From: a virus
Length of the DNA stretch: 17,122 bases
Direction: 5' to 3' (one strand)
Virus genome (UHGV): UHGV-0339891
Shown: positions 5,985 through 8,462 of the stretch, piece by piece
How positions within the stretch are numbered: position 1 is the stretch's first letter
Layout of the letters: each line of letters opens with the position of its first letter
Program-made: the position numbers and the translations under genes
Notes under the pieces: generated by a model
Seen by the model: the letters and a program-made list of their open reading frames with translations, nothing else
Told to the model about the DNA's origin: nothing
Database searches by the model: none

Positions 5985-6173
5985 TTATGCCTTCTTGCAG
6001 CGAAGGCTTCCGAGTGATGCTGCTTTATCTGCTCTGACGCAACCAGAGAGCTTTAGCGCAATTTTTCGCGCCAGTCGCTGCTCTTGCATTGCCTGTTCAC
6101 GTTGAGCCTGTCTGCGTGCTCTGCGGCGGTTTCTGGCATTATCGTCAGCCAGATATGTAATAACTACTGTCAT
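5985..6173 (-). CDS. N: N-like transcription antiterminator, short (62 aa) with an arginine-rich motif
   Basis: ATG with GGAGG 5 nt upstream; N-terminal motif NARNRRRARRQAQREQ; first gene downstream of pL and nutL. Confidence 0.5.
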   Translation of the reverse strand: MTVVITYLADDNARNRRRARRQAQREQAMQEQRLARKIALKLSGCVRADKAASLGSLRCKKA

Positions 6174-6367: not shown

Positions 6368-6408
6368 TCCCGCATTTCGGCGGGACAATCCCATCAATGT
6401 TAAAGAGC
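6368..6408 (-). promoter_or_regulatory. nutL (boxA GGCTCTTTAA plus boxB hairpin)
   Basis: Minus-strand GGCTCTTTAA (plus 6400-6408), 13-nt spacer, then hairpin CCCGC-CGAAAT-GCGGG (plus 6368-6386); the same boxB occurs at nutR. Confidence 0.6.
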
Positions 6409-6454
6409 CTGCCAATCTGTTCCGTTTGGCTACCAGCGTCCTGCTGATGGCTTA

Positions 6455-6540
6455 AAGATAACTTAGGTTATAGGTGTGGTCAATAACATAATTTATATTT
6501 TGTGGTAAATAAGTTATAAGTGATGGATAACAAAGGTATT
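6455..6540 (-). promoter_or_regulatory. pL promoter with OL operator sites
   Basis: Minus strand: -35 TTGACC (plus 6478-6483), 17-bp spacer, -10 TATCTT (plus 6455-6460); operators ATAACTTAGGTTAT 6458-6471, ATAACATAATTTAT 6483-6496, and weaker ATAACAAAGGTATT 6527-6540. Confidence 0.55.
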
Positions 6541-6660
6541 TTATTTTTGTAAATGTTGCTGATTGATTGGTGTTTGAGGGCTTGCGTGCGGGGTGAAGGT
6601 GTTACCTTTGGCTTGATGCTTGTCTATGATGATGATGGGTGATTGGGTGGTGAACGGCAG

Positions 6661-6695
6661 GAAAAGAAAACCCGGCGCTGAGGCCGGGTGTTTTT
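6661..6695. terminator. Bidirectional intrinsic terminator ending the cI operon
   Basis: Stem CCCGGC/GCCGGG (6671-6676 / 6683-6688) flanked by TGTTTTT on plus and TTTTCTTTTC on minus. Confidence 0.55.
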
Positions 6696-6990
6696 AGTCT
6701 TTTCTTTTGCTTAGCATTTCGTCGATTTCTAAGTCAATACGATATTGATCTATTGCTTTTCTCTCGTTTGGGGTTGGTATTTTATACTGTTCAATTAGAT
6801 CTGTTGTGTATTTTATTTCATCTAATGTGATTTTTATATCAGATAGAATCTCTTTTATATCAATTAGATGCTCTTCTTCTTTTGCGCGATTAGAGCTATG
6901 TTCAATCATTTGAGATAGCTTTTTGCTAATGCTTAGCAAAACAAAAAGAATGATGACCAAAACAACAACAAAAACTATCAGAAATTCCAT
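6694..6990 (-). CDS. Small membrane-anchored coiled-coil protein (98 aa), a moron in the rexAB position downstream of cI
   Basis: ORF track; ATG with GGAGG 4 nt upstream; N-terminal TM helix EFLIVFVVVLVIILFVLLSI then a charged helical domain; AT-rich; terminator 6 nt after the stop. Confidence 0.55.
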   Translation of the reverse strand: MEFLIVFVVVLVIILFVLLSISKKLSQMIEHSSNRAKEEEHLIDIKEILSDIKITLDEIKYTTDLIEQYKIPTPNERKAIDQYRIDLEIDEMLSKRKD

Positions 6991-7030
6991 TATCCCTCCG
7001 CACTTCCGTAAGTCTTCTTCTGATTATCGG

Positions 7031-7738
7031 TTACCAACTATGAGACGACCAGAATACTCTGCCAATAATCCTTACGGTTTTATGAAATTCATCTCTATCC
7101 ATTACTTCATCCGGGTACTCTTCGCGATTTATTGATCTGATTATCACCGATGTAGGGGTGGCGATTAATGTTTTTACTCGTAACAAATCAGACTGGCAAA
7201 TAGCGTAGGTTTTACCATCTCTGATTGTGGTATCTTGCGTGTTAACACCAACAACATCGCCATCGTGAAGCGTTGGTTCCATGCTTTGCCCTACAACCCT
7301 AACTAGCTTGGCTGATCTTTCAGATACTCCCATCTTTTTCAGATAGTGCTTTCTGAAAACCAAAGAGAACTCCGATGATTCCTCTAGCTCGCAGCTACCG
7401 CTTCCAGCTGAAAGCGAAACGTTAAGAAGAGGCAACGCAACAAACTCGTCATCGTTTCTTTTAATGTCTTCCCATACCACAGCTTTTAAAGATGACTCAC
7501 GGACATTGGATGGTTCTTCATGTGCACCATCCCTCATTTCACCAATACCAGAACTAAGCCATTCAGGACGCACTTTTAAAGCATTGGCTAATTCAACCAT
7601 CTTGCGAGATCCGTTTGTTTTACCGGACGACATCTTCTGTATGGCTGGCTGAGATATTCCAACCATGTCAGCAAGCTGTGATTGTGATACCCCTGCTGAG
7701 CTCATGGCTGCATTTAGTCTTTCTGCGAATGTTTTCAT
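7031..7738 (-). CDS. cI: cI-type prophage repressor (HTH plus LexA-like S24 peptidase domain)
   Basis: ORF track 7031..7768 (TTG); ATG at 7738 (MKTFAERL); HTH segment QSQLADMVGISQPAIQKM; Ala-Gly site in LSAGSG; Ser in GQSMEP and Lys in LLRVKTL. Confidence 0.8.
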   Translation of the reverse strand: MKTFAERLNAAMSSAGVSQSQLADMVGISQPAIQKMSSGKTNGSRKMVELANALKVRPEWLSSGIGEMRDGAHEEPSNVRESSLKAVVWEDIKRNDDEFVALPLLNVSLSAGSGSCELEESSEFSLVFRKHYLKKMGVSERSAKLVRVVGQSMEPTLHDGDVVGVNTQDTTIRDGKTYAICQSDLLRVKTLIATPTSVIIRSINREEYPDEVMDRDEFHKTVRIIGRVFWSSHSW

Positions 7739-7745
7739 ACCCACA

Positions 7746-7816
7746 AATCTATAACTACGGTTATCCAAAGTAAAATAACAAAGGTTATTGCTATTTTTTA
7801 TAACTTGAGTTATCTT
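7746..7816. promoter_or_regulatory. OR region: three operators with divergent pRM and pR
   Basis: Operators ATAACTACGGTTAT 7751-7764, ATAACAAAGGTTAT 7775-7788, ATAACTTGAGTTAT 7800-7813; pR -35 TTGCTA 7788-7793, 17 bp, -10 TATCTT 7811-7816; pRM (minus) -35 TTTACT 7769-7774, 17 bp, -10 TAGATT 7746-7751, giving a near-leaderless cI. Confidence 0.6.
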
Positions 7817-7849
7817 TGGTTATAAGTAATGACCACAAGAGGTATGCTC

Positions 7850-8074
7850 ATGAATTTAGTAATTCAACGAGCCTTGAAAATTGTCGGTAGCCAAAAGCGT
7901 CTTGCCGACAAGTGTGGTGTAACGCAGCCAGCAGTACACAAATGGCTGAAAGGCGGGTTGGTCTCTCCAGAGAAAGTTACCGCCATCGTTAACGCCACTG
8001 GAGGGCAGATCAAGGCTTACGAAATTCGCCCCGATTTGCCACACCTGTTTCCAAAACCGAATCAGGCAGCATAA
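7850..8074 (+). CDS. cro: Cro-like repressor (74 aa from MNLVIQ)
   Basis: ORF track 7829..8074; preferred ATG 7850 with AAGAGG 7 nt upstream; HTH-like segment QKRLADKCGVTQPAVHKW; first gene right of OR. Confidence 0.65.
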   Translation: MNLVIQRALKIVGSQKRLADKCGVTQPAVHKWLKGGLVSPEKVTAIVNATGGQIKAYEIRPDLPHLFPKPNQAA

Positions 8075-8081
8075 GTAACAC

Positions 8082-8126
8082 CGCTCTTTAACAGTCATGG
8101 TCCTCATTCCCGCCGAAATGCGGGAA
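8082..8126 (+). promoter_or_regulatory. nutR (boxA CGCTCTTTAA plus boxB hairpin)
   Basis: CGCTCTTTAA 8082-8091, 15-nt spacer, hairpin TTCCCGC-CGAAAT-GCGGGAA 8107-8126, identical to the nutL boxB. Confidence 0.6.
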
Positions 8127-8132
8127 TACAAC

Positions 8133-8183: not shown

Positions 8184-8462
8184 ATGCAACTTACAAGTAC
8201 TCGCAAGAAAGCGAATGCAATTACAAGCAACATCCTGAATCGAATTGCTGTACGTGGTCAGCGAAAGGTTGCCGACGCGTTAGGGATTAATGAATCGCAA
8301 ATTTCGCGATGGAAAGATAGCTTCATCCCAAAAATGGGAATGCTTCTGGCTGTTCTTGAATGGGGTGTTGAAGACGAGGAGTTGGCGGAACTGGCTAAGC
8401 AAGTAGCCAGAATGCTGACAAAAGAAAAAGCCCCGAAGAACGGCGAATTCTTCGAGGCCTGA
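8184..8462 (+). CDS. cII: cII-like transcriptional activator (92 aa)
   Basis: ATG 8184 with AAGGAAA upstream; SQISRWKDSFIPKMGMLLAVLEWGV matches lambda CII SQISRWKRDWIPKFSMLLAVLEWGV (recalled). Confidence 0.75.
   Translation: MQLTSTRKKANAITSNILNRIAVRGQRKVADALGINESQISRWKDSFIPKMGMLLAVLEWGVEDEELAELAKQVARMLTKEKAPKNGEFFEA
8421..8458 (-). terminator. Minus-strand intrinsic terminator inside the 3' end of cII (OOP-like antisense RNA terminator)
   Basis: Minus-strand hairpin CCUCGAAGAA-UUCGCCG-UUCUUCGGGG followed by CUUUUUCUUUU; no T-run on the plus strand. Confidence 0.45.

Follow-up and report, generated by a model that had tools for sequence, protein, structure and literature searches.

Predicted operators and promoters, and the regulators at the locus

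The DNA analyzed here is a stretch of 17,122 bp (the window) from the virus genome UHGV-0339891. Its positions 6455 to 8074 very probably constitute the immunity (lysis-lysogeny) switch of a lambdoid E. coli prophage, with a set of short palindromes as predicted operators. The cI (7031-7738, minus strand) and cro (7850-8074, plus strand) genes are divergent and separated by a 111-bp gap. The gene order is N-nutL-pL/OL ... (accessory gene)-cI-pRM/OR/pR-cro-nutR-cII, where OL and OR are the left and right operators, pL and pR the leftward and rightward promoters, and pRM the promoter of cI.

An exact search of the window for ATAACNNNNGTTAT (ATAAC-N4-GTTAT) found four sites, at 6458-6471, 7751-7764, 7775-7788 and 7800-7813, against 0.01 expected; none of 200 dinucleotide shuffles reached four. 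These counts dispose of the objection, foreseen in the initial annotation, that the motif might be no commoner here than at random. The OR sites are spaced by 24 and 25 bp. Allowing up to two mismatches added sites at 6483-6496 (one mismatch), 6527-6540 (two) and 7810-7823 (two, overlapping OR1). The predicted operators and promoters and the regulatory genes are as follows.

6455-6483, minus strand: pL; −35 TTGACC (reverse complement of 6478-6483), 17-bp spacer, −10 TATCTT (reverse complement of 6455-6460)
6458-6471, unstranded: OL1, ATAACTTAGGTTAT, perfect palindrome over the pL −10
6483-6496, unstranded: OL2, ATAACATAATTTAT, one mismatch, first base common with the pL −35
6504-6517, unstranded: candidate weak OL3, GGTAAATAAGTTAT, proposed from half-site conservation
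6527-6540, unstranded: candidate weak OL4, ATAACAAAGGTATT, two-mismatch match with half-site conservation
7031-7738, minus strand: cI repressor, 235 amino acids, open reading frame from the ATG at 7738; same coordinates given by PGAP in E. coli E7476
7746-7774, minus strand: putative pRM; −35 TTTACT (reverse complement of 7769-7774), 17-bp spacer, −10 TAGATT (reverse complement of 7746-7751)
7751-7764, unstranded: OR3, ATAACTACGGTTAT, within the pRM spacer, one base common with the pRM −10, G/C-rich centre
7775-7788, unstranded: OR2, ATAACAAAGGTTAT, adjoining the pRM −35, one base common with the pR −35
7788-7816, plus strand: pR, read from the sequence; −35 TTGCTA (7788-7793), 17-bp spacer, −10 TATCTT (7811-7816)
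7800-7813, unstranded: OR1, ATAACTTGAGTTAT, 3-bp overlap with the pR −10
7850-8074, plus strand: cro, 74 amino acids, all-alpha P22_Cro/YdaS type

The promoter pL was called by a promoter consensus scan (9 of 12 positions) and would start transcription at about 6448; OL1 covers its −10 and OL2 touches its −35. The pR transcript would start at about 7823, and the two promoters are in one register: −35, six nucleotides, operator, CTT. Counted from the predicted starts, the centre of OR1 lies near −17 and that of OR2 near −42 of pR, while relative to pRM the centre of OR2 lies at about −43 and that of OR3 near −20. Immediately to the left of OL1, GATGGCTTAAA (6446-6456) occurs unchanged in phage 434, in the region where its pL transcript start is annotated.

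The repressor combines HTH_3 and Peptidase_S24 domains (PF00717, E = 2.4e-17). Its N-terminal helix-turn-helix is 434-like: residues 4-67 matched the 434 repressor chains 1sq8, 2r63 and 1per in a phmmer search of the PDB (E = 7.5e-8 to 2.8e-7), and the recognition helix is SQPAIQKM (residues 29-36). The recognition helix of Cro, TQPAVHKW, shares the QPA start with that of cI; the cro ATG is preceded by AGAGG at 7 nucleotides, and the structural match of the protein is Xfaso 1 Cro (3bd1). The Pfam name 'YdaS toxin' is historical, since YdaS of CP-933P acts as a Cro (PMC8630535).

The initial annotation had placed three 14-bp palindromes in OR, at 7751, 7775 and 7800 with a spacing of 24-25 bp, and the exact search confirmed them. 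The matching sites that it gave for OL were upheld in part: one perfect (6458) and one single-mismatch site (6483) are present, not three equal sites, and the rest are weak remnants. We therefore describe OL as two firm predicted sites, at 6458 and 6483. Its proposal that the operators overlap pR, a near-leaderless pRM and pL in the layout of lambda, with a different sequence, is supported by the lambda and 434 records and by the register conserved among relatives.

Recurrence of the sites in other prophages

Viral contigs of IMG/VR were scanned for two perfect sites 8-13 bp apart, with no protein information. This DNA-first scan returned at least 120 loci. At least 89 of these have the sites within a gap of 115-117 bp, bounded by homologues of the cI N-terminal domain (at least 55% identity) and of Cro (at least 73%), nearly all with three sites in fixed register. 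Forty-three distinct OR sequences, from these loci and from reference phages, were aligned; the sites keep a constant position relative to the promoters and to the start codons of cI and cro. By column, conservation is highest at the six half-sites and four promoter hexamers (TA-N-ATT, GTAAA, GGACA or TGCTA, and TATCTT), and OR3 and OR2 are conserved even inside the promoter spacers. The −10 TATCTT of pR is nearly invariant in the 43 relatives, and the pR −35 is TGGACA in most of them; the centre AAAG of OR2 is also kept in most. In 1.38 Mb of phage and prophage DNA, 465 of 480 perfect sites are clustered and 15 isolated. For a host chromosome, base composition predicts by calculation about 4-5 isolated sites per 5 Mb.

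The left operator recurs as well. Of 97 oriented loci, 82 have a perfect and a near-perfect site 25 bp apart, 0.9-3.1 kb beyond cI on the side opposite to cro. The pair lies over a conserved pL, of which the −35 is kept, with GTTATCTT, in nearly all relatives. The distance between cI and OL varies because the cargo genes differ; here the cargo is the accessory gene orf98. The right half of OL2 is deviant in all relatives (TTTAT or ATTAT), and the deviation is itself conserved. Beyond OL2, the facing half-sites GTTAT (6513-6517) and ATAAC (6527-6531) are the only conserved ones. The T-rich block AATTTATTTTTGTAAA (6541-6556) next to them is conserved in nearly all relatives, and the minus strand of 6504-6556 reads TTTACA-18-TATCAT in HK639-type phages, with TATCCA in this prophage. 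Weak sites OL3 and OL4 could lie in this segment, or else another leftward promoter, which might be under repressor control.

Two other imperfect matches were set aside. The two-mismatch match at 7810-7823 was rejected as a fourth OR operator: 4 bp of it lie within OR1, and only the lineage of the window and PA28 retains its GTTAT, which is absent from HK639-type and other relatives. The one-mismatch match ATAACTACTGTCAT (6160-6173) overlaps the start codon of N, and the E7476 copy has the half-site GTCAT, not GTTAT; it is probably due to chance.

The protein-first scan used peptide patterns from the cI N-terminal domain on one genome per species. All 13 loci that have the helix [ST]QPA[IV]QK and available upstream DNA carry the sites directly upstream of cI. 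These loci come from Enterobacter, Kluyvera, Entomohabitans, Symbiopectobacterium, Serratia, Hafnia and several Gilliamella, and their intergenic DNA is otherwise unalignable. The 13 upstream segments of 170 bp contain 28 perfect sites against 0.014 in shuffles, and 39 sites with at most one mismatch against 0.30. At several of the loci another perfect site follows 0.9-2.3 kb past cI, at the position of OL. In the same scan, no sites were found at relatives without the recognition helix. The initial annotation had pointed to other prophages as the place to look for the motif, and there the sites recur with the same recognition helix, in viral contigs as in bacterial genomes.

Relatives with the helix SQP(S/A)IW(K/R), from Rahnella, Xenorhabdus, Morganella and Providencia, have ATAAC-N4-GGTAT instead, and this pairing may be a natural specificity change. 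The sample is small, and the co-variation of helix and half-site is as expected if residues 34-35 of cI read the inner positions of the half-site. In six of the loci (L135-L137 and L139-L141) the asymmetric ATAAC-N4-GGTAT occupies the places of OR3 and OR2, 25-50 bp ahead of cI. Distant helix-turn-helix pairs found by the motif alone (35-50% identical) also start the recognition helix with SQPA(I/V).

The same cI N-terminal domain is joined to three divergent S24 classes of C-terminal domain among the matches listed: the type of the window and PA28 (LSAG/SGS); a Cys-Gly type about 40% identical; and the HK639 type (VSAG/PGS), which is unlinked even by tblastn. This natural shuffling ties the sites to the N-terminal domain and to Cro, not to the rest of cI. 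In loci L020, L027, L110, L116 and L011, Cys-Gly (ACG/DG) replaces Ala-Gly at the predicted cleavage site of cI.

Model of the switch and alternative explanations

From this layout we infer a switch that would work as follows. Dimers of cI would bind the 14-bp ATAAC-N4-GTTAT sites via the 434-like helix-turn-helix. Occupancy of OR1 and OR2 would block pR, and with it cro, cII and replication, while the dimer at OR2, placed against the −35 of pRM, could stimulate a leaderless cI-orf98 mRNA. OR3, inside pRM, would shut this promoter off at high repressor level. OL1 and OL2 would cover pL, which is expected to serve N and the recombination genes. Cro would bind the same sites, turning down pRM and later pR and pL. 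Repression would be lifted once cI, stimulated by RecA, cleaves itself at Ala111-Gly112 with the Ser152/Lys189 dyad.

Several points weigh against this reading. The promoter pR matches only 8 of 12 consensus positions, just under the threshold of the scan, and was not called. Neither the mismatch scan of the window nor the alignment of relatives gave a clear third OL site. The half-site conservation in the 43-sequence alignment is partly circular because loci were chosen for two perfect sites; the unbiased set for this test is the 13 protein-found loci. Helices of the SQPA type may be common among XRE-family proteins. Finally, our literature searches found no binding, footprint, transcript-start or cleavage report for this group of repressors.

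The alternative that survives best leaves the switch as described and supposes that the repressor is not efficiently SOS-inducible, or that the prophage is not inducible. We regard it as unlikely. The initial annotation had noted an Ala-Gly site and a Ser/Lys dyad in the repressor, and alignment bears this out: Ala111-Gly112, Ser152 and Lys189 are invariant among this cI and those of lambda, PA28 and HK639, and coincide in the alignment with the corresponding residues of the lambda repressor, A111-G112, S149 and K192. The same cI is present in genome records of Stx1a-converting phages. These motifs suggest SOS inducibility, but RecA sensitivity is not readable from motifs. Moreover, the antiterminator gene of the prophage is interrupted:

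5985-6173, minus strand: N-like antiterminator gene, phrog_271, with the arginine-rich motif NARNRRRARRQAQ

The interruption is an ochre codon at 5985-5987 in place of Glu63, where GAA in E7476 is TAA here. It truncates N to 62 of 99 amino acids, so that the C-terminal 37 residues are lost and the arginine-rich motif is retained; by analogy with lambda N, the lost part would be the RNA-polymerase-binding end. The ochre codon should block delayed-early expression even after cleavage of cI, and this copy of the prophage is probably defective for it. The prophage may thus be immune and yet not productively inducible, and induction by mitomycin C could fail for reasons unrelated to the repressor.

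A second alternative, which we consider improbable, is that cI is not made from a leaderless pRM transcript, and that transcription starts further upstream and serves a weak ribosome-binding site. The sequence GTGGG is indeed found just upstream of the cI ATG, and 434, the closest structural relative, has a 17-nucleotide leader with an annotated ribosome-binding site. Against this, the cI ATG and the start of OR3 are 13 bp apart (11 bp in lambda). The pRM −10 ends 7 nucleotides before the A of this ATG (7738), leaving no room for a Shine-Dalgarno sequence, and the cI mRNA is predicted to be leaderless or to have a leader of one nucleotide. The position of TA-N-ATT against OR3 is constant in all relatives. 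In all Enterobacterales relatives the ATG follows this −10 at 6-7 nucleotides, while the bases between the two vary. Gilliamella keeps the −10 in place against OR3, but its cI ATG lies about 30 nucleotides away, after a Shine-Dalgarno-like GGGA/GAGA. This contrast supports both the assignment of the pRM −10 and the leaderless reading.

Third, the palindromes could be operators for Cro, or another factor, only, with cI recognizing another sequence. The sites are accompanied by Cro homologues no less faithfully than by the cI N-terminal domain, so that co-occurrence alone cannot separate the two proteins. However, the recognition helices of both start with QPA, loci L011 and L115 keep the cI domain and the sites without a detectable Cro homologue, and OR has no other repeated element. 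Both proteins also use the same sites in every characterized lambdoid switch (lambda and 434 annotations). Taken together, this makes exclusive use by Cro very improbable. The last alternative, that the sites are chance A/T-rich palindromes or by-products of promoters with no protein bound, is effectively refuted: A and T do prevail between the genes, and the TAT of the −10 TATCTT comes from the half-site GTTAT, but the counts of perfect sites in the window and in the independent loci exceed expectation far too widely (4 against 0.01 and 28 against 0.014), and OR3 and OR2 are conserved within promoter spacers.

Neighbouring features, relatives and known switches

Two further features lie between cI and OL.

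6670-6689, no strand assigned: bidirectional intrinsic terminator found by a scan on both strands; hairpin of −13.7 kcal/mol, z = −2.7
6694-6990, minus strand: orf98, small membrane/coiled-coil protein, phrog_18389 (function unknown), hypothetical protein by PGAP

On the minus strand, the terminator ends the cI-orf98 transcript. The orf98 product has an N-terminal hydrophobic helix and a charged, coiled-coil-like tail, and the gene occupies the position of rex in lambda, between cI and the terminator; other genes stand there in SH2026Stx1, PA28 and HK639. It had no Pfam match and no meaningful PADLOC match. The nutL (6368-6385, minus strand) and nutR (8106-8127, plus strand) sites flank the immunity region as in lambda. 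Their boxB-type hairpins have the identical stem-loop CCCGCCGAAAUGCGGG, each preceded by a boxA-like CGCTCTTTA or GCTCTTTAAC, with a boxA at 8082-8090. Inside the 5′ end of cII, the cII-box-like repeats TTGCGAGTACTTGT (8193-8206, minus strand) and TTGCTTGTAATTGC (8217-8230, minus strand) point towards cro and cI, at the expected place of pRE. Their position alone is suggestive; TTGYN6TTGY occurs six times in the window against 4.9 expected, which is not above chance. A scan of the window against Rfam gave no known RNA family.

A prophage in the chromosome of E. coli E7476 matches the segment 6200-8300 at 99.7% identity, and 80% or more of the segment is present in 97 of 5426 complete E. coli genomes. 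As annotated by PGAP, the E7476 copy is a lambdoid early region with Erf, anti-RecBCD, Kil, CIII, an N-like gene, an XRE-family repressor, a transcriptional regulator (cro), CII, replication, nin, a Q-type antiterminator and lysis genes. The nearest phage record to the segment is the Stx1a-converting phage Stx1a_10051 (99%). The cI-cro cassette alone is 94% identical in SH2026Stx1 and 79% in PA28 and a set of Stx1a phages, and the similarity to SH2026Stx1 and PA28 is confined to 7029-8090, from cI through cro. The cassette edges near 7029 and 8090, and the stretch 6446-6456 shared with 434, look like recombination junctions of the immunity module. The module formed by the cI N-terminal domain, OR and cro was found in 163 of the 5426 genomes (about 3%), in 113 of them at 90% identity or more and in 50 at 60-80%. 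Modules of the PA28 type fall in the latter band, and the HK639 variant was found in one complete E. coli genome.

Several lambdoid cI/Cro switches of E. coli phages have experimentally mapped operators, among them those of H-19B, 933W, BAA2326 and CP-933P. Four OR sites are reported in the Stx1 phage H-19B (Shi and Friedman 2001, per PMC8065619). H-19B was rejected as the same system: its cI gives a BLASTP E of 0.12, its Cro no alignment, and its OR has no ATAAC-N4-GTTAT site at up to two mismatches. The switches of 933W, BAA2326 and CP-933P were likewise rejected, as their repressors are unrelated and their operator sequences differ. In a survey of CI clades in Stx phages the operators are undefined (PMC8951638). 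The design of the switch described here is textbook lambda. Our literature searches on the motif and on the operators of HK639, H-19B and Stx1 phages found no experimental description of this operator, nor of its pairing with the recognition helix that would mark the immunity group.

HK639, PA28, SH2026Stx1 and Stx1a_10051 have the same recognition helices in cI and Cro, three OR sites, the OL pair and the same register, and their cI N-terminal domains are 85-100% identical. HK639 differs by a very divergent S24 C-terminal domain and by RNA-based (put-like) antitermination, and PA28 by one mismatch in OR2 (ACAAC...) and by the lower DNA identity of its cI-cro module (79%); HK639, PA28 and SH2026Stx1 have other cargo genes between cI and OL. 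The initial annotation had taken the sites to define the immunity specificity of this prophage. The half-site would indeed define it, but the specificity is not private, since these phages and many Enterobacterales prophages share it. Because recognition helices and operator half-sites are the same and in the same register, HK639 and PA28 are predicted to belong to one group with this prophage and to be cross-immune with it. We tentatively suggest that one recognition module (cI SQPAIQK, Cro QPAVHKW and ATAAC-N4-GTTAT) defines a single cross-immunity group with at least three divergent self-cleaving C-terminal domains (Ala-Gly or Cys-Gly). The group would span commensal E. coli prophages, HK639, Stx1 phages of O157:H7 and other Shiga toxin-producing E. 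coli, and prophages from Enterobacter to Gilliamella. Were this the case, Stx1 phages could be kept out by a harmless or defective prophage that is already resident, of which this one would be an example; in a double lysogen, the resident could also keep an Stx1 phage repressed and so set its induction threshold. Homoimmune prophages would become predictable, and hence the strains in which resistance to lysogenic conversion by these phages is expected. Since the C-terminal domain is swapped naturally, induction thresholds could also be compared at constant DNA specificity.

With lambda, the switch shares three OR sites, whose centre-to-centre distances are 23-24 bp there and 24-25 bp here, a pRM −10 TAGATT that leaves no room for a Shine-Dalgarno sequence, and an S24 repressor with Ala-Gly, Ser and Lys. 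The distance from the cI ATG to the start of OR3 (11 bp there, 13 bp here) and the site spacings differ little between the two; the arrangement is therefore that of lambda almost base for base. However, the lambda operators are 17 bp long and unrelated in sequence, its cI is only 27% identical, its Cro has another fold, its OL has three clear sites, and OL and OR are about 2.4 kb apart there as compared with 1.3 kb here.

The likeness to 434 lies in DNA recognition. The cI N-terminal domain aligns over its full length with the DNA-binding domain of 434 repressor (residues 1-63), and Gln17, Gln28 and Arg43 of 434 correspond to Gln19, Gln30 and Arg45 here. The operators of both are 14 bp long; their outer 4-5 bp carry the specificity and their centre varies. 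Phage 434 has annotated ACAA-N6-TTGT operators at OR1-3 and OL1-3 with the same interleaving with pR, pRM and pL. The centre of OR3 is G/C-rich (TACG, and CGAG or CCAG in relatives), whereas those of OR2 (AAAG), OL1 and OL2 are A/T-rich. By analogy with the effect of the operator centre reportedly described for 434 by Koudelka, Harrison and Ptashne in 1987, OR3 would be the weakest site, as a lambda-like switch needs.

The two systems differ in the spacing of the sites (24-25 bp here, 22-23 bp in 434), in the Cro, which here is of the P22_Cro/YdaS type, and in the 17-nucleotide leader and ribosome-binding site of 434 cI. The specificity of imm434 itself (half-site ACAA, helix TQQSIEQ) was not found at the locus, which has ATAAC and SQPAIQK. 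With respect to the 434 half-site, ACAA(G/T), position 1 (A) is kept, while position 2 (C to T) and position 5 differ; in the repressor, Gln29 and Gln33 of 434 are replaced by Pro31 and Lys35. In the 434 co-crystal structures of Anderson, Ptashne and Harrison from 1987 and of Aggarwal et al. from 1988, Gln28 is said to read A1, Gln29 base pair 2 and Gln33 base pairs 4-5. The changes are therefore consistent with the same docking as in 434 and an altered code. The system would thus provide a natural specificity variant of the 434 repressor-operator pair, in which Gln29 to Pro and Gln33 to Lys accompany the change from ACAA to ATAAC.

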